Positions 17,788 to 53,590 of a stretch of 53,590 bases of DNA are shown here, piece by piece (the first letter of the stretch is position 1; every line of letters begins with the position of its first letter). Under the pieces are notes generated by a model, which made no database searches, had not been told where the DNA came from, and was given only the letters and a program-made list of their open reading frames with translations. The translations under genes and the position numbers were made by a program. Source of the stretch: a bacterium (lineage in GTDB: Bacteria > BMS3Abin14); assembly GCA_029210545.1 (NCBI GenBank), contig JARGFV010000002.1:1-53590 (forward strand), read 5' to 3'.

Positions 17788-20439
17788 ATGACCAAAGAGA
17801 TGCCAAAGCACTTCGACCCCGCGTCATCCGAGACAAAATGGTACGCATTCTGGATGGAGAAGGGGTATTTTCATGCCGATGAGGGATCAGCGCGCCCGCC
17901 TTACAGCATCGTCATCCCTCCTCCCAACGTAACCGGTTCCCTGCACATGGGGCACGCCCTCAACAACACACTCCAGGACATCCTCGTCCGCTACCACCGG
18001 ATGAATGGGTGCGAGGCGCTCTGGATGCCCGGCACGGACCATGCCGGGATCGCCACCCAGAACGTTGTGGAAAAAGAGCTGGACTCCCGGGGAACCGACC
18101 GGCATGCCCTCGGCCGTGAGAAATTCGTGGACAGGGTGTGGGAGTGGCGGGAAAAGTACGGCGGGGTCATCCTCCAGCAGCTCCACAGGCTGGGGTCCTC
18201 CTGCGACTGGGAACGGGAGCGGTTCACCATGGACGAGGGGCTGTCCCGGGCGGTCAGGGAAGTGTTCGTCAGGCTCCATGACGAGGGGCTCATCTACCAG
18301 GGAGATTACATTATCAACTGGTGTCCCCGTTGCCACACCGCCCTGTCCGACCTCGAGGTCGAGCACCATGACCGGAAGGGGAAGATGTACCACCTGCGTT
18401 ATCCGTCCGTGGACGGGACGTCGGAGGTTGTGGTGGCGACTACGAGGCCGGAGACCATGCTGGGAGACACGGCCGTTGCGGTGAACCCGGCCGACGAACG
18501 GTACAAGGGGATGCTGGGCAAGAGCTTTCATCTGCCCATGACAAGGCGTGACATCCCCCTTATCGCGGACGACTACTGTGACATGGAGTTCGGGACCGGC
18601 GCCGTGAAGGTCACTCCGGCCCACGATTCCAACGATTTCGAGATCGGGGAACGTCACGACCTTCCCAATGTGTCCGTCATCTCCATGGAGGGCACCATGA
18701 CCCACGAGGCCGGGGAACGTTACGAGGGCATGGACCGTTACGAGTGCCGCAGGATTCTCATCGATGATCTCGATAAAGGCGGGTTTCTCGTCAAGGTGGA
18801 AGATTATGAGCACGCCGTCGGCCAGTGCTACCGGTGTCAGACCGTCATCGAACCGATCATCTCGAGGCAGTGGTTCGTTCGTACGAAGGAACTGGCCAAA
18901 CCGGCCATTGAAGCCGTCCAGGATGGGCGGATCAGGATTGTCCCCGCCAGTTGGGAGAAGACCTACTTCGAGTGGATGGTCAACATCCGTGACTGGTGCA
19001 TTTCGAGGCAGATCTGGTGGGGACACAGGATCCCTGTCTGGTATTGCGGAGACTGCGGAAAGGTTGTCGTCCAGGTGGAGGAGCCCACGGCGTGCCCGGA
19101 CTGTTCCAGCCCGGATCTGAGACAGGAAGAGGATGTCCTCGATACCTGGTTCTCTTCTGCCCTGTGGCCATTTTCCACTTTGGGTTGGCCCGACAGGACC
19201 CCTGCCCTGGAAAAGTTCTATCCAACAAGCTGCCTCGTGACCGGTTTCGACATCCTATTCTTCTGGGTGGCCCGGATGATCATGATGGGGATGAAGTTCA
19301 TGGGAGACGTGCCGTTCAGGGAGGTTTACATCCACGCCCTGGTTCGGGACGCCGAAGGTCAGAAGATGAGCAAATCCCGGGGTAACGTCATCGATCCCCT
19401 TGTGATCATCGACGAGTACGGCGCTGACGCCTTCAGGTTCACCCTTGCCGCTTTCGCTGCAATGGGCAGGGATATCAAGCTTGCCGAGGACAGGATCGAG
19501 GGGTACCGCAACTTCATCAACAAGATATGGAACGCTTCCAGGCTGGTGCTCTCCTACCTTGAGGGCGTTACCCCGGACCAGCTGGCCGACCCGGATCCGC
19601 CGACGGAAGAGCACAACCGGTGGATAAGGAGCAGGCTGGCTGTGGTCACGGACCAGATCCGCGGTGCTGTAGAAGACTACCGGTTCAACGACGTGGCCAA
19701 CACCCTGTACCAGTTCTTCTGGCACGAGTTCTGCGACTGGTACCTGGAACTGGCCAAACCCTCCCTGTACGGGGACCGGGGAGAGAGGGCACTCCTGGAG
19801 ACCAGGGTCACCGCAGGCATGGTCCTGGAAAACTTCCTGAGGCTGCTTCATCCCGTCATGCCCTTTGTCACGGAGGAGATCTGGCAGAAGCTTCCCGTCG
19901 AGGGCGAGAGCATCATGACCGCGTCTTTCCCCGAGGCGAGGAGCGGGGATGCGGATGCCGAGGCGGACGAGAATATGGCGGTAGTCATGGATTTCATCAC
20001 CGCTGTCAGGAATCTGAGGACCGAGTTGGGGATCCCTCCCGGCCGCATGGTCCGGGCCACCATCGTGTGCAGGGACCGCGGCATTGCCGGGATCCTGGAA
20101 GGTGCGGTCCCGGACATGACCCGGCTGGCCCGGCTCAGTGAGGTCCTGATCACCGAAGTGAGACCGGAACAGGACCCGGGGTCCGCAGCCGTGGTAAGGG
20201 GACAGGAAGTTCTCATCTCGGCCGAGGAAGAGATGGACAAGGATGCCGAGATCCAGAGGCTTACAAGGGAGTTGACAAAGGTGACCGGCGAACTTGCGAA
20301 GGTGGAGAAGAAGCTGGGCAACCCGCAGTTCGTCCAGAAAGCTCCCGAGGAAGTGGTGCTGAAAAACCGCGGTGTCCTGGAGGAGCTTCAAGCCCAGAAG
20401 GGCAAGCTGGAAGAGAACCTGGAGAGGCTCAATGATTAA
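17788..20439 (+). CDS. valS: Valine--tRNA ligase
   Basis: PPPNVTGSLHMGH (HIGH), TTRPET, GTGAVKVTPAHD, DWCISRQIWWGH, KMSKS, C-terminal coiled coil. Confidence 0.98.
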   Translation: MTKEMPKHFDPASSETKWYAFWMEKGYFHADEGSARPPYSIVIPPPNVTGSLHMGHALNNTLQDILVRYHRMNGCEALWMPGTDHAGIATQNVVEKELDSRGTDRHALGREKFVDRVWEWREKYGGVILQQLHRLGSSCDWERERFTMDEGLSRAVREVFVRLHDEGLIYQGDYIINWCPRCHTALSDLEVEHHDRKGKMYHLRYPSVDGTSEVVVATTRPETMLGDTAVAVNPADERYKGMLGKSFHLPMTRRDIPLIADDYCDMEFGTGAVKVTPAHDSNDFEIGERHDLPNVSVISMEGTMTHEAGERYEGMDRYECRRILIDDLDKGGFLVKVEDYEHAVGQCYRCQTVIEPIISRQWFVRTKELAKPAIEAVQDGRIRIVPASWEKTYFEWMVNIRDWCISRQIWWGHRIPVWYCGDCGKVVVQVEEPTACPDCSSPDLRQEEDVLDTWFSSALWPFSTLGWPDRTPALEKFYPTSCLVTGFDILFFWVARMIMMGMKFMGDVPFREVYIHALVRDAEGQKMSKSRGNVIDPLVIIDEYGADAFRFTLAAFAAMGRDIKLAEDRIEGYRNFINKIWNASRLVLSYLEGVTPDQLADPDPPTEEHNRWIRSRLAVVTDQIRGAVEDYRFNDVANTLYQFFWHEFCDWYLELAKPSLYGDRGERALLETRVTAGMVLENFLRLLHPVMPFVTEEIWQKLPVEGESIMTASFPEARSGDADAEADENMAVVMDFITAVRNLRTELGIPPGRMVRATIVCRDRGIAGILEGAVPDMTRLARLSEVLITEVRPEQDPGSAAVVRGQEVLISAEEEMDKDAEIQRLTRELTKVTGELAKVEKKLGNPQFVQKAPEEVVLKNRGVLEELQAQKGKLEENLERLND

Positions 20440-21343
20440 GTTTCCACTGAATGTTCACCGCCTCATCGACCTTGCCGTGGAGGAGGACCTGGGGACGGGG
20501 GATGTCACAGGGAAGGCGATCCTGGACGAGAACGCTCAGGGGGAAGCGGTCATCCTGGCCAGGCAGGAGCTGGTGCTGTGCGGCCTTGACGTGGCTCGGG
20601 AGGTATACAGGCGGATCGGTGCGGGCGTGGTCCTCACTTCCTCCATATCCGAGGGGCAGACGGTCGGGCAAGGTGCTGTATTGGCCGAACTGACCGGCCC
20701 CGTCACGGTCCTCCTGACAGGGGAGAGGATCGCCCTGAACTTCCTCCAGCGCCTTTGTGGTATCGCCACCCTCGCGGGCCGCTACGCCGCCGCCGCCGGG
20801 GGAAGGACGACGATCCTGGACAGCCGGAAAACGGTGCCCGGCTGGCGCTGGCTGGACAAGATGGCAGTGAGGGTGGGTGGGTGTACCAACCACCGCATGG
20901 GTCTTTTCGACGGTATCCTCATCAAGGACAACCACATCGCGGCCAGCGGCGGCATCCCGGAGGCGCTTGCCCGGGCGAGGGAAAGGGCCCCCGCGGGGAT
21001 GGAGATCGAGATCGAGGTCGAGGACCTGGACGGTGTCAGGGAAGCCATGGAAAACGGAGCTGACATCATCATGCTGGATAATTTCGATCCTCCAGACGTG
21101 GTCCGGGCGGTCCGGATCAACGCTGGCAAGGCGCGCCTGGAACTTTCAGGCGGGATAGACCTCACCAACCTCGGGGAGTACCTGGATGCTGCCGGGCTGG
21201 GTTCCGGCAGAGGCGTCGATTTTATCTCGATAGGTGCCCTGACACACTCGGCGCCGGCGGCCGATATCGCCATGGAGATAAGGTCCGGCAATCCGGCGGC
21301 CGAAAGACACGGAGACACGGGGACACGGGGACGCGGGGAATAA
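20432..21343 (+). CDS. nadC: Nicotinate-nucleotide pyrophosphorylase (quinolinate phosphoribosyltransferase)
   Basis: EDLGTGDVT, ERIALNFLQR, DSRKTVPG, NHRMGLFDGILIKDNHI, MLDNF, SGGI; ATG 20432 overlaps the valS end. Confidence 0.95.
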   Translation: MIKFPLNVHRLIDLAVEEDLGTGDVTGKAILDENAQGEAVILARQELVLCGLDVAREVYRRIGAGVVLTSSISEGQTVGQGAVLAELTGPVTVLLTGERIALNFLQRLCGIATLAGRYAAAAGGRTTILDSRKTVPGWRWLDKMAVRVGGCTNHRMGLFDGILIKDNHIAASGGIPEALARARERAPAGMEIEIEVEDLDGVREAMENGADIIMLDNFDPPDVVRAVRINAGKARLELSGGIDLTNLGEYLDAAGLGSGRGVDFISIGALTHSAPAADIAMEIRSGNPAAERHGDTGTRGRGE

Positions 21344-21400: not shown

Positions 21401-21572
21401 TCCCTGGGCGTGTCACTGAGAGTCATAAAGTGAACAAGGCAGTTATAGCCGACCGGCGTCAGGTCTGGAATTTAACCACAGGGTACACCCTTCGACAGGC
21501 TCAGGACAGGCGGGGTGACACAGGGTAAGACTACAACCAGGGAAGGATTTGAAAAGAAACATGCGTAACATT

Positions 21573-21727
21573 GATGGACTCGCAAAAAGTCCATCAACGC
21601 ACCCCGCGCGGGGTGCCCAAATCAATGACCCGCCCCCTAAGTCATTGATTTGTAAGGAAAGGGAAAACGACGCTTTTCCCTTTCCGTGGAGCGAAAAGTC
21701 CCGGACTGGACTTTTTGCGACTCTTTC
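21573..21727 (+). mobile_element. Family A five-hairpin MITE-like element, copy A2 (155 bp)
   Basis: 20-bp imperfect TIRs (17/20 matched), five internal hairpins, AACATT on both flanks (21567-21572 and 21728-21733). Confidence 0.8.
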
Positions 21728-21859
21728 AACATTGATCTACCCTGTGAAACCCTGTGGTGTGACCTGAAAAAAGGTCACGCTGTGGTTGAATGGTTTATCA
21801 GAATTCGACTGTTCGACCGGCGTCAGGACATGTAAGGTCGCCTCGGGAGCCAAAAGGCC

Positions 21860-22585
21860 ATGATCCATCGCTTCGAGAGCCTGGGATCAACCAATGATCA
21901 ACTCGTACGGATGGCGGAGGAAGGGGCACCGGAGTACACGGCGGTTCTGGCCGAAAGACAGACCCGGGGAAAGGGACGGGCCGACAGGGGCTGGTGGTCT
22001 CCCCCGGGGAACCTGTACCTTTCGGTCCTCCTCCGGCCCGGGATCAACGCCAGGCGGCTTCCGAGGGTATCCATCCTGGCGTCCCTGGCCCTTTTCCGGG
22101 CGATCGACGACAGGACCGGAACCGTTTCCCTTAAATGGCCCAATGACCTGCTCCTTGACGGCAGGAAATTGGCGGGCATCCTGCCGGCTGGCAGGATCGA
22201 GGGAGACAAGGTGGCCTGGGTCGTGACCGGGTTCGGTGTGAACGTGGTCAAACCGGAACAGGGTGTGCCCGGGGAACTGGAAGACCGGGTCGCTTTTCTC
22301 GATGAGATCGTCGAGACATCCCTTGACGACCTGGTTCACAGGATCATCGGCGAGTTCAAGGGCCTGGCCGGGTCTTTCGAGGGCCCGGCGTGGCAGAGGG
22401 CCCGGGAAGAATGGTCGCGCAGCGCCGTTTTCGGTCCTCACTATACACTGAGGGACGGTAAGAGGCGGATCGTTGGAACGCCCGTGGGCCTTGCCCATGA
22501 CGGCGGGCTGGTCATGGAAACGGAGCAGGGAACGGTTACAGTTTATGCGGGGGAACTGGAAGAGAGTGCAGAGTGTAGAGTGTAG
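21860..22585 (+). CDS. birA: Biotin--acetyl-CoA-carboxylase ligase (no N-terminal HTH)
   Basis: STNDQL, QTRGKGR, GNLYLS, KWPND, KLAGIL, GFGVN. Confidence 0.9.
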   Translation: MIHRFESLGSTNDQLVRMAEEGAPEYTAVLAERQTRGKGRADRGWWSPPGNLYLSVLLRPGINARRLPRVSILASLALFRAIDDRTGTVSLKWPNDLLLDGRKLAGILPAGRIEGDKVAWVVTGFGVNVVKPEQGVPGELEDRVAFLDEIVETSLDDLVHRIIGEFKGLAGSFEGPAWQRAREEWSRSAVFGPHYTLRDGKRRIVGTPVGLAHDGGLVMETEQGTVTVYAGELEESAECRV

Positions 22586-32604: not shown

Positions 32605-33018
32605 GGGCGGCGCGCCCAAATCAATGAATAGCCGCGCCTGGGAATGGCGCCCGGATCGATGATCGACCATCTACCGCGCCTGGGAATGGCGCCCGGATCG
32701 ATGATCGACCATCTACCGCGCCTGGGAATGGCGCCCGGATCAGTGACTGAAATACAGGTCACTGATCCGTGAGGGAACCGAAAACCACGCTTTTCGGTTT
32801 CCGTTGAGCCAAAGTCCTACTCGGACTTTGGCGATTTACAGTAGTCACCGTGAGGGAACCGAAAACCACGCTTTTCGGTTTCCGTTGAGCCAAAGTCCTA
32901 CCCGGACTTTGGCGATTTACAGTAGTCACCGTGAGGAAAGGGAAAACGACGCTTTTCCCTTCCCCCAGGACATTAATGAGCCAGGAAAAGTTCCGCCTGG
33001 ACTTTTTGCGACTCTATC
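32605..33018 (+). repeat. Family A copy A3, expanded by internal tandem duplications (42 bp x2.6; 81 bp x2)
   Basis: 42-bp unit starts at 32632, 32674 and 32716; 81-bp unit starts at 32767 and 32848; canonical A right end at 32929-33018; left TIR absent. Confidence 0.85.
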
Positions 33019-42882: not shown

Positions 42883-42887
42883 AAATT

Positions 42888-43042
42888 GATGGACTCGCAA
42901 AAAGTCCATCAATGCGCCCCGCGCGGGGCGCCCAAATCAATGACTCACTCCGTAAGTCATTGATTTGTAAGGAAAGGGAAAACGACGCTTTTCCCTTTCC
43001 GTGGAGCGAAAAGTCCCGGATTGGACTTTTTGCGACCCTGTC
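42888..43042 (+). mobile_element. Family A five-hairpin MITE-like element, copy A4 (155 bp)
   Basis: Full copy; flanks AAAATT / AAAGGT; ends 14 nt before mqnD. Confidence 0.8.
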
Positions 43043-43056
43043 AAAGGTGGATCTGA

Positions 43057-47745: not shown

Positions 47746-48891
47746 ATGAAGACGATCATGAACGCCGCGTTTTCAACATCCATTGAAAAGGGCGCCGCCG
47801 GGCAGCGGTTGACCCGTGCAGAGGCCTTTGCCCTGATCGGGGCTGTCACACCCGACACGCTTCACCTTCTGGGGGAGGCCGCTCTGGAAAACCGGACACG
47901 GCGTTGGGGCAATGACGCGACCTATATCTTCAACATCCAGATAAACCCGGCGAACATCTGCACCACGGGATGCGCCTTCTGCAATTACGCTGCCCGTCCC
48001 GAAGAAGCGCACGCCTACATCCTCAGTGAAGAGGAGATCATCGAGAAAGTGGGAAAACTGGCCCCCACCGAGGTACACATCGTGGGCGGCTTGAACAGTG
48101 TGTGGCCCTATGAGCGCAACCTCGGCCTGGTCCGTGAACTGCGCAGGAGATTTCCTGTTCTTCATATCAAGGCGTTCACCGCAGTTGAAATTGCTTTTTT
48201 TGCCCGGACTGCGGCAAAGAGCGAGAGGAGGGTCATTGAAGAACTTATTGAAGCCGGCATAGACGCCATGCCCGGCGGCGGCGCGGAAATTTTTTCCGGG
48301 CGCCTCCGTGAAAAATACTGGAAGAACAAGATCAGGCCGTCCGAATGGATCCATATCCACCAACTGGCCCATTCAATGGGAGTGTCGACCAATGCGACCA
48401 TGCTGTTCGGCTTCGGGGAAACCTGGACTGAAAGGGTGGAGCACCTGCTGACGCTCAGGGATGCCCAGGACACTTCAGATGGTTTTAGCTGTTTCATTCC
48501 CCTGGCGTTTCAGCCCGGTGAAGGTCGGTTTATCGAGCAGGGTCCGACCCCGCTCGACACCTTGTCCGTGCTTGCGGTGTCAAGGTTGGTACTGGACAAT
48601 ATCTCCCATCTTAAATCCTACTGGCCTATGATCGGACTCGAAACTGCAGCCGCCGGTCTTAGCTGGGGCGCCGATGACCTGGACGGAACCATCGGCGAGG
48701 AAAAAATAGCCCACATGGCAGGGGCAAAAACACCTTTTGGACTGGCGCGTGACCGGATGGTGGAAACAATTTCAACCGCAGGGTTCCGCCCACGGGAACG
48801 GGACGGCCGTTTCACGCCGATGAACGCCCCTTCCCCATCGACCGGTGTCCTGCCGGGTGACGTTACAGCATCGGACCAGGAGCCTGCCTGA
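47746..48891 (+). CDS. mqnE: Aminodeoxyfutalosine synthase (radical SAM, CofH-like)
   Basis: NICTTGCAFC (CxxxCxxC), HIKAFTAVEI, MPGGGAEIF, FIPLAFQP, HLKSYW, DDLDGTI.EEKI.H.AGA. Confidence 0.85.
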   Translation: MKTIMNAAFSTSIEKGAAGQRLTRAEAFALIGAVTPDTLHLLGEAALENRTRRWGNDATYIFNIQINPANICTTGCAFCNYAARPEEAHAYILSEEEIIEKVGKLAPTEVHIVGGLNSVWPYERNLGLVRELRRRFPVLHIKAFTAVEIAFFARTAAKSERRVIEELIEAGIDAMPGGGAEIFSGRLREKYWKNKIRPSEWIHIHQLAHSMGVSTNATMLFGFGETWTERVEHLLTLRDAQDTSDGFSCFIPLAFQPGEGRFIEQGPTPLDTLSVLAVSRLVLDNISHLKSYWPMIGLETAAAGLSWGADDLDGTIGEEKIAHMAGAKTPFGLARDRMVETISTAGFRPRERDGRFTPMNAPSPSTGVLPGDVTASDQEPA

Positions 48892-48940
48892 TAACCCCAC
48901 AAAGACTCCTGGCAATGGTCAAGTGACGCGAGGTTCAACG

Positions 48941-49789
48941 ATGACTCATCCTGTCGCAATTATCCCCTACACGAACATGGCGCCTCTACAGGTTTTCGGT
49001 CCTCCGCAGGGGTGCCGGTTCGTGCCGATGGTTCCCCGGGAGAGCATAACCGCCCTTCTGGAGAAACGTGTGATCGCCGCGGCTGTACCGGTGGGTGGGC
49101 TGCCGGCTCTCGACTCCGCCGTCGACCTGCTGGGGCCTTTCGGTATCGCCGCACGGGAACGGTCCATGAGCGTCCTGCTGTTTTCGAAGCGGCCGTTTGC
49201 CGATATCCCACCCGACGCCCGATTCCGATTGACCTCTGAATCCGCCTCCAGCGTCCGGCTCCTCTACCTTCTCCACGGATATCGAAACGGGTTTAAAAAA
49301 AAACCCACTTCGGCCGGTAACGGACGTAGTGCGGACGGAGAGCTTCTTATCGGCGATGCCGCCCTGCTCATGAGGAAATCGCATCGGGAAAACAGGTCAC
49401 ACGAATACCCTTTTGTGACGGACCTGGCGGAGGAATGGTTTGCCATGCACAGCCTGCCTTTCGTCTTCGCCAGATGGGTGATACGCAAAGATGCTCCTGG
49501 CACCGCCCGCAGGGCACTCGAAAACTGGCTTGATGAGTTCAGAGTCAATGAGTTCGACCTGATCCATCGTGCGGCGCCGCCGGCTGCCAGAAGCCTCGGC
49601 TTGCCCCTGCAGGAGGTGCTGGACTATTTCCGAACTGTCCGCCGGGTCCTCGACCAGGATGATCTTGCCGGGCAGGAACGTTTTTTAACCGATCTTGAGC
49701 TATTGAAAGAGTCGCAAAAAGCCCAGGCGGGACTTTTTGCTCAACGGAAAGCGAAAAGTGTCATTTTCGCTTTCCTCACAGATCATTGA
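48941..49789 (+). CDS. mqnA: Chorismate dehydratase
   Basis: IPYTNMAPL, SMSVLLFS, SASS, LLIGDAAL, DLAEEW, LPFVFARW; the last 27 aa come from repeat copy A5. Confidence 0.88.
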   Translation: MTHPVAIIPYTNMAPLQVFGPPQGCRFVPMVPRESITALLEKRVIAAAVPVGGLPALDSAVDLLGPFGIAARERSMSVLLFSKRPFADIPPDARFRLTSESASSVRLLYLLHGYRNGFKKKPTSAGNGRSADGELLIGDAALLMRKSHRENRSHEYPFVTDLAEEWFAMHSLPFVFARWVIRKDAPGTARRALENWLDEFRVNEFDLIHRAAPPAARSLGLPLQEVLDYFRTVRRVLDQDDLAGQERFLTDLELLKESQKAQAGLFAQRKAKSVIFAFLTDH

Positions 49790-49857
49790 CTTCTATTGCC
49801 GGTCATTGATCTGGGCGCCCCACCTGGGGCGTGTTGATGACTTTTTGCGAGGTCACC
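49705..49857 (-). mobile_element. Family A element, diverged copy A5 (153 bp, reverse orientation)
   Basis: Reverse complement keeps the TIRs and the four internal hairpins with stem-preserving substitutions. Confidence 0.78.
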
Positions 49858-53534: not shown

Positions 53535-53590
53535 GATGGACTCGCAAAAAGTCCATCAACGCGCCCCGCGCGGGGCGCCCAAATCAATGA
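53535..53590 (+). repeat. Family A copy A6, left part only, cut by window end
   Basis: GATGGACTCGCAAAAAGTCCATCAACGCGCCCCGCGCGGGGCGCCCAAATCAATGA. Confidence 0.9.

Follow-up and report, generated by a model that had tools for sequence, protein, structure and literature searches.

A five-hairpin MITE family of an uncultured candidate phylum, with covarying stems and apparent selection in the copies that transpose

The 155-bp element at positions 21573-21727 of the window (the whole 53,590-nt stretch of DNA analyzed) is a non-autonomous MITE with genuinely covarying hairpin stems, and its hairpins seem to be selected in the lineage of copies that keeps transposing, not as resident regulatory RNAs. 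We think it rather probable that this MITE is moved in trans by an IS1182-like DDE transposase and that the hairpins are selected in propagating copies, for mobility or for establishment. Read directly, the sequence of this copy (A2) has terminal inverted repeats of about 20 bp and five perfect hairpins; no conserved open reading frame was found in the 155 bp, the interior being entirely hairpins. The inverted repeats of the family are TTGATGGACTCGCAAAAAGTCC and GGACTTTTTGCGACTCTTTCAA, and the element ends of about 20-22 bp, TTGATGGACTCGCAAAAAGTCC and GGACTTTTTGCGACYCTRTCAA, are conserved across 183 copies from 14 genomes.

Repeat search, profile search and alignment recovered all six copies that a preliminary description of this DNA had located in the window, and no seventh copy was found in the 53,590 nt by nhmmer, repeat search or alignment. 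The exact AACATT duplication that it had reported around A2 is present, as is every arm variant that it had quoted. The neighbors of A2 are nadC (20372-21343) on one side and a biotin/lipoate ligase gene (21860-22585) on the other. In the composite copy A3, a 42-nt H2'/H3' module occurs three times (32632-32757) and an 81-nt H4'-H5' module twice (32767-32928), and these are followed in the 3' portion by H4, H5 and the right end, all canonical. In this copy, hairpin modules behave as duplicable units. Copy A4 follows the stop of the fumarase beta-subunit gene by 5 nt and precedes the start of an MqnA-like gene by 14 nt, occupying nearly the entire spacer (42883-43056), and a ribosome-binding-like AAGGTGG lies within or beside its right flank duplication. 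The divergent copy A5 carries the arm variants CAGATC/GATCTG and GGAAAGCGAAAA/TTTTCGCTTTCC. The open frame of an MqnA-like paralogue (48845-49789) enters this minus-strand copy by about 85 nt, and its Pfam match stops at residue 282 of 314; the last ~28 codons and the stop codon of the gene seem to be supplied by A5.

Table 1. Copies of the element in the window, and the repeats and hairpins of copy A2
Feature	Position	Strand	Basis or remark
Copy A1, 3' part (H4, H5, right end), cut by contig start	1..75	+	model positions 83-158
Left target-site duplication copy AACATT	21567..21572	.	same as 21728-21733
Copy A2, canonical 155-bp MITE	21573..21727	+	end-to-end family-model match, nhmmer E = 2e-54
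Left terminal inverted repeat GATGGACTCGCAAAAAGTCC	21573..21592	+	inverted match of 21708-21727
Hairpin H1, 8-bp stem, left end folded back on itself	21573..21595	+	DNA fold
Hairpin H2, 7-bp G+C stem	21599..21616	+	DNA fold
Hairpin H3, 12-bp stem, hypervariable 11-nt loop	21618..21652	+	DNA fold
Hairpin H4, 12-bp stem and covarying triloop-closing pair	21656..21685	+	DNA fold
Hairpin H5, 11-bp stem using inner part of right inverted repeat	21691..21718	+	DNA fold
Right terminal inverted repeat GGACTTTTTGCGACTCTTTC	21708..21727	+	inverted match of 21573-21592
Right target-site duplication copy AACATT	21728..21733	.	same as 21567-21572
Copy A3, composite long variant	32605..33018	+	without left end; adjoins comEC stop codon
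Copy A4, full	42888..43042	+	alignment and profile match
Copy A5, divergent full copy	49705..49857	-	alignment and profile match
Copy A6, 5' part (H1, H2, start of H3), cut by contig end	53535..53590	+	model positions 2-58

The host genome (G000), a MAG of 2.72 Mb in 241 contigs, contains about 270 end motifs of each polarity and 72-78 full-length copies, and the family makes up about 1.5% of this 2.7-Mb genome. Identical 6-nt flanks, with the consensus AANNTT, were found at 35 of 72 full copies, compared with 2.0 expected from shuffled pairing. Flanks departing from TT at positions 5-6 (AAAGAA, AACAAT, AAAGGT) were still duplicated on both sides, so the target duplication is 6 bp and a 2-bp duplication is ruled out. 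Reconstructed empty sites showed a wider preference, (T)(G/C)AANNTTGA; they had no symmetry beyond AANNTT, and a hairpin or palindromic target as for IS1272 was therefore rejected. Head-to-tail neighboring copies are frequent in G000 because the junction of a resident copy resembles the target.

Empty sites, which the preliminary description had suggested comparing, were found among the relatives. A copy lies upstream of fumA in G005, and its congener G011 has plain sequence there. Of the two sites in the window, that downstream of nadC is occupied only in G000 among the genomes with nadC (14/16), and that downstream of fumB, taken by A4, is occupied only in G000 and empty in all 15 relatives (fumB being present in 16/16 genomes). 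Conservation of the MqnA-like gene across the relatives was not found, nor was an orthologous pair of resident copies at the nadC, fumB and MqnA-like loci in relatives. Upstream of fumA in G012 (L153, 480-640) there is a degenerate copy without a left end, in which H3 has undergone a double change from C-G to A-U (CGGATAAATGAC/GTCATTTATCCG), and a G006 contig (L156, 1-30) breaks at the same place; this insertion may be common to the genus of G012 and G006. The element is non-coding and shorter than about 500 bp, and has inverted ends, a fixed-length duplication, dispersed copies and insertion polymorphism, as expected of a bacterial MITE. Its first characterization as MITE-like is fully borne out by the inverted repeats, the duplication, the hundreds of copies, the empty site and the partner insertion sequence described below.

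Contig ends are touched by 134 of the 447 blastn matches in G000, so the element is the main cause of the fragmentation of this assembly into 241 contigs, more than half of which are broken by the family. The contig studied here starts and ends inside copies (1-75 and 53535-53590). The element explains the fragmentation of MAGs of the host phylum and provides a ready lineage marker. About 20 solo hairpins of 22-23 bp identical to H1 (GATGGACTCGCAAAAAGTCCATC) also occur in G000 (for example C26:261-283, C224:4067-4089 and C44:17703-17724), and exact 6-nt flank duplications were seen at three of them; these hairpins are either minimal mobile units or products of in-situ deletion between two ATCAA repeats. 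A second repeat family in G000 has the same terminal motif, TTGATAACCTCGCAAAAAGTCTCTTCGAGCCATTTTGCGAGG, with a different end foldback and about 13 matches (for example C230:39106, C204:4434 and C208:15376).

Of 185,579 species genomes, eight contained the exact right-end 22-mer, all of them uncultured MAGs labeled "Proteobacteria bacterium" or "bacterium" (SZUA-204, SZUA-178, ZodW_Metabat.265, PFL40, bin582 and others). The host candidate phylum has 16 species representatives in GTDB r232, belonging to one class, one family and nine genera, and the element occurs in 15 of these 16 species with 78-95% identity; a complete 2.8-Mb genome of the phylum (G001) has zero copies. The element was absent from all of 25 unrelated genomes and had no match in plasmid and phage collections. 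We regard this MITE family as highly successful, with a range limited to a single candidate phylum that is small and uncultured. Copies in G004, which belongs to another genus (L124, L125), are 93-95% identical to those of G000, whereas the proteins of the two genomes are 62% (NadC) and 84% (fumarase beta subunit) identical. Given the divergence of NadC, the element has probably spread horizontally within the phylum in recent times.

No transposase was found between matching ends at a spacing of 0.3-6 kb in G000, where the five candidates all enclose ordinary genes. A search for DUF772 across the host family identified a partner in G000, at contig C111:15754-17427 (1.67 kb), with the ends TTGACGGCATCGCAAAAAGTATC and TTGATGGACCCGCAATTAGTCAC. 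The 505-531 aa protein has DUF772 (34.6 bits) and DDE_Tnp_1 (23.5 bits) domains, both above Pfam cut-offs, and its C-terminus looks degenerate. Its best NCBIfam match, transpos_IS1182, reached 116.5 bits, below the cut-off of 270, which is not enough to place the partner firmly in IS1182, and it is called IS1182-like here. A partial copy of an IS1182-like element, ending in TGACGGACTCGCAAAAAGTATC, is present in G011 (another genus), and the left end of the MITE shares the 15-mer GGACTCGCAAAAAGT with the end of that element. The MITE end and the IS1182-like end in G000 are identical at 17 of 22 bases; overall, 17-19 of the 22 terminal bases of the MITE, including this 15-mer, are identical to insertion-sequence ends. 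The preliminary description had also proposed looking for a transposase bounded by the same inverted repeats; the C111 element and the partial G011 copy have matching ends. In all, a single complete partner insertion sequence had ends that match, and no DUF772 transposase was found in the high-copy genomes G005, G012 and G013, whose MAGs are fragmented or incomplete. Judging from sequence, the C111 element is the likely source of the transposase for the MITE.

When folded as single-stranded DNA, A2 formed exactly the five separate hairpins that had been described (-46.3 kcal/mol, z = -8.3). As RNA its two ends paired with each other and enclosed H2-H4 (-76.9 kcal/mol, z = -8.9), and the minus strand of the element folded equally well. 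Pairing of the two ends was rejected as the selected helix, as it is weaker than the local H1 and H5 (for H5, 89.1% compared with 81.9% of cells paired).

The copy set consisted of 183 distinct full copies from 14 genomes and nine genera, and covariation was analyzed in a MAFFT alignment of 87 non-redundant copies from 14 genomes. In these 87 copies, 94.6% of the cells formed a standard pair, compared with 89.9% in shuffles; both-sided changes were seen at 20 of 47 pairs, compared with 11.2 +/- 1.8 in shuffles, and 206 cells were changed on both sides, compared with 64 in the control. The covariation score was 0.178, compared with 0.092 in shuffles and 0.02-0.06 with slid partners, and none of 500 shuffles equaled any observed pairing or covariation value. 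RNAalifold, unaided, predicted H2-H5, with 14 of 32 pairs changed on both sides. By parsimony, stems had 5.05 changes per column and unpaired columns 16.95, that is, 3.4-fold fewer in stems. The covariation is real, and it provides unusually clean evidence of selection on MITE secondary structure. The earlier claim that the fold is maintained agrees with the significant covariation and the 3-fold deficit of propagated stem variation, and the claim that loops vary freely agrees with the 17.0 changes per unpaired column.

The changes are seen in every hairpin. H1 falls into two subfamilies that differ by a matched one-base deletion in each arm (GATGGACT/AGTCCATC versus GATGACT/AGTCATC). At the third pair of H2, 73 sequences have G-C, 8 have A-U and 3 have G·U. 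In H3, 97.7% of the cells are paired, 8 of 12 pairs are changed on both sides, and pairs switch between A-U (54) and G-C (32). The seventh pair of H4 is C-G in 27, G-C in 27, U·G in 19 and U-A in 7, and the pair that closes its triloop beside a bulged C is U-A in 45, C-G in 39 and other in 3. The second pair of H5 is C-G in 70 and U-A in 17, with zero exceptions. No stretch of the element varies more than the H3 loop (21630-21640 and equivalents), and this is so even where copies of a single genome are otherwise 94-99% identical; the loop variants are shared and not private, so source copies differ mainly in that loop.

Such a pattern could arise without maintenance if a few ancient subfamilies, recombination or module swapping, and horizontal spread had inflated the covariation of hairpins that were simply inherited. 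The copies are indeed not independent, and in many of the both-sided changes one event has been multiplied by bursts. In H3, the change from AA/TT to GG/CC recurs as a block on several branches, suggesting recombination, modules are visibly shuffled and duplicated, and the close copies shared with G004, another genus, point the same way. However, at least 14 of 42 pair positions have at least two Watson-Crick types, each in at least two copies, and one pair runs through the series G-C, C-G and U-A with the U·G intermediate present. Moreover, the stem deficit of shared variants and the better pair-keeping of shared than of private variants, both given below, are independent of event counting. 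We consider an artefact of lineage very improbable.

To locate the constraint, we divided variants into private ones, found in one copy of a genome and taken as a proxy for post-insertion change, and shared ones, found in several copies and taken as a proxy for pre-insertion change. Among 426 G000 matches, private variants per 1000 cells numbered 1.61 in stems and 1.36 in unpaired positions (p = 0.65), and shared variants 71 and 199.5, respectively (odds ratio 0.31); with about 270 nearly identical repeats, assembly of the MAG from short reads may have introduced variants into these counts or masked others. The pattern was the same for full copies in three genomes. Minority pair states kept the pair in 53 of 68 shared cases and in 73 of 152 private cases (p = 3e-5), and private one-sided changes resembled raw mutation (35 G·T, 28 A·C, 44 other). 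No constraint on resident copies was detected, private variants being as frequent in stems as in loops. As private variants are even and shared variants are depleted in stems, decay in resident copies is even, and descendants come only from copies whose stems are intact. Hence the constraint is not where the preliminary description had placed it: selection on the hairpins seems to operate in the line of copies that goes on transposing, and is located there and not in the host. The private-versus-shared split is a simple and reusable test of "selfish" versus "domesticated" structure in repeat families.

The preliminary description had cautioned that template switching in quasi-palindromes, which copies one arm onto the other, can produce apparent covariation in the absence of structural selection. 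Each of the five hairpins is a near-perfect palindrome with a short loop, the kind of sequence on which this known mutational process acts; double changes are frequent (65 Watson-Crick to Watson-Crick events by parsimony), and the deletion in H1 is matched in both arms. Unbiased arm correction, however, predicts a neutral rate in stems, and the observed rate is about 0.3 of that in loops. It also predicts a fast loss of one-sided mismatches, whereas private ones are as dense in stems as elsewhere and wobble states are retained in many copies, across as many as 8 genomes. Furthermore, the covarying pair 98-102 closes a triloop by a bulged C and is not in the palindromic register. The persistence of private mismatches together with the slowed stems argues against continuous palindrome correction. 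We therefore judge template switching improbable as an explanation without selection, and, given the undepleted private mismatches, the slow stems and pair 98-102, unlikely as the main cause of the covariation about which the caution had been raised.

The element had also been interpreted as a mobile structured ncRNA or regulatory cassette. A host-domesticated RNA of this type would be transcribed with its neighbors or from its own promoter, a reading that we find unlikely; it is equally unlikely that the hairpins act in situ as RNA stabilizers, processing sites, terminators or insulators kept by host selection. As RNA the element folds very stably (z = -8.9), it tolerates G·U-type states, copies lie between co-directional housekeeping genes (one of them 5 nt after a stop and 14 nt before a start), and there are precedents in bcr1, ERIC and Correia elements, which are transcribed and structured (PMC3184786). 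On the other hand, orientation relative to flanking genes is unbiased, with 12 co-directional and 12 anti-directional copies, counted over full copies in tandem contexts with crude gene calls and many copies unscored. No promoter-like or terminator-like site was found in or around A2, and insertion sites are not conserved between species. Rfam, a search of which had been proposed, gave nothing at gathering score in the whole window, the best sub-threshold hit being a miRNA model at E = 0.1. Private variants are not depleted in the stems of resident copies, and this even decay argues against a host-level function of resident copies. With no Rfam match, promoter or terminator signal, orientation bias or resident constraint, the ncRNA or cassette interpretation is unsupported, and on present evidence the element is not a host regulatory RNA.

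We further compared the one-sided states on the two strands. In canonical copies, the propagated states on the plus strand were G·T in 21 cases and A·C in 4, and those with at least 5 copies were 11 and 1, respectively; parsimony gave 91 changes from Watson-Crick to G·T and 49 to A·C. A mutational origin of the G·T excess was unsupported, the transition spectrum of unpaired columns predicting about 1:1. When all 426 partial and modular G000 matches were aligned, the asymmetry was gone (G·T 17, A·C 17); in this set most A·C calls are misaligned variant modules, and one is real (columns 121-148, 28 copies). A requirement that one strand fold, as single-stranded DNA or RNA, is therefore suggested only, and not robustly. 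The orientation of copies relative to local GC skew or to the gene-strand majority was about 57%/43% (p = 0.02-0.6 depending on settings); a strict IS200/IS605-like strand rule was rejected, and the replication-linked orientation bias is weak, at about 57%.

Under the reading that we prefer, an IS1182-like insertion sequence with the same ends would supply the DDE transposase that moves the MITE in trans. Insertion targets AT-rich intergenic DNA, at sites resembling (T)(G/C)AANNTTGA that are cut with a stagger of 6 bp. By the statistics above, natural selection maintains the five hairpins, with compensatory and G·U-type changes preserving the pairing; it falls on the copies that give rise to new copies, while residents decay evenly over stems and loops. 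We infer that the folded interior is needed for the mobility or establishment of so short an element, possibly with one of its strands acting while single-stranded. The length of a 155-bp duplex is close to one persistence length, so its ends are hard to bring together; the folded interior might make the DNA flexible enough for the ends to meet. Alternatively, it may recruit a hairpin-binding IS1182-type transposase, since the IS1182-family elements IS1272 and TnSha1 recognize DNA hairpins (PMC4923244). The persistence-length limit and this hairpin recognition together make a role of the hairpins in mobility plausible. The modular long variants, with their three 42-nt and two 81-nt units (32632-32928), fit units that are individually useful to the element.

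A more specific and more doubtful version is that the IS1182-type transposase binds or needs hairpins extruded on one strand, stem integrity there deciding which copies mobilize. No DDE transposase is known to require internal hairpins. If true, hairpin-dependent mobilization on one strand would explain why constraint is found only in the propagating lineage, why G·T but not A·C is tolerated on the plus strand, why hairpin units are duplicated as modules, and why the family persists through the whole candidate phylum; it would amount to structure-dependent parasitism of a MITE on a DDE transposase. Hairpins serving as transposase-recognition or synapsis modules would likewise link the taste of IS1182 for hairpin targets to the build of its parasites. 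The private-versus-shared analysis and the possible strand dependence are the aspects worth following.

The bcr1 repeat of the Bacillus cereus group was reportedly described by Klevan et al. in 2007 and Kristoffersen et al. in 2011. It is the nearest of the MITE-like repeats with stable folds and compensatory changes that have already been described (PMC3184786). Like the present element, it is about 155 bp long, non-coding, dispersed and not conserved in position; it is flanked by short direct repeats and folds into several hairpins whose base pairs show compensatory changes (PMC3184786). The likeness lies in size, fold and compensatory changes (PMC3184786). The two differ in host phylum and apparently in sequence, and the flanks of bcr1 are 5 bp, in contrast to the 6-bp AANNTT found here. 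Moreover, transcription of bcr1 is established and no partner transposase has been identified for it, whereas a partner insertion sequence is identified for the present element.

MITEs of the IS1182 family are similar in that the ends of the element match those of an insertion sequence encoding a transposase with DUF772 and DDE domains, for which IS1182 is the best profile, and in the known interaction of the IS1182 family with DNA hairpins or palindromes (PMC4923244). However, IS1272 inserts into hairpins without target duplication (PMC4923244), whereas this element duplicates 6 bp at non-hairpin AANNTT sites. It also differs from the family in that the hairpins are inside the element and the partner transposase is below the curated IS1182 cut-off.

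ERIC, BOX and RUP are repeats of enterobacteria and pneumococci, and Correia elements, those of Neisseria, have a TA target duplication and 26-bp ends; with its 6-bp AANNTT duplication and different ends, the present element is not a Correia element. All four are MITE-like repeats, 100-200 bp long and abundant between genes, whose ends are inverted and whose predicted folds are stable (PMC3184786), as is the case for the family studied here, and BOX is also modular, with tandem sub-units as in the long variants. They differ from it in their ends and target duplications and have no sequence similarity to it, and their effects on promoters, RNase III and IHF had no detected counterpart. REP/BIME and REPIN sequences (RAYT, IS200/IS605-like) resemble the element in their short palindromic modules in mosaic arrays, and their substrate, a one-strand DNA hairpin, would suit the hint of strand asymmetry; the element does not fit this group, as REPs have neither inverted ends across the unit nor target duplication, whereas the present element has inverted ends, a 6-bp duplication and a DDE-type partner. 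Taken together, both the family and the lineage are new and a partner is identified, whereas the kind of element is not new.
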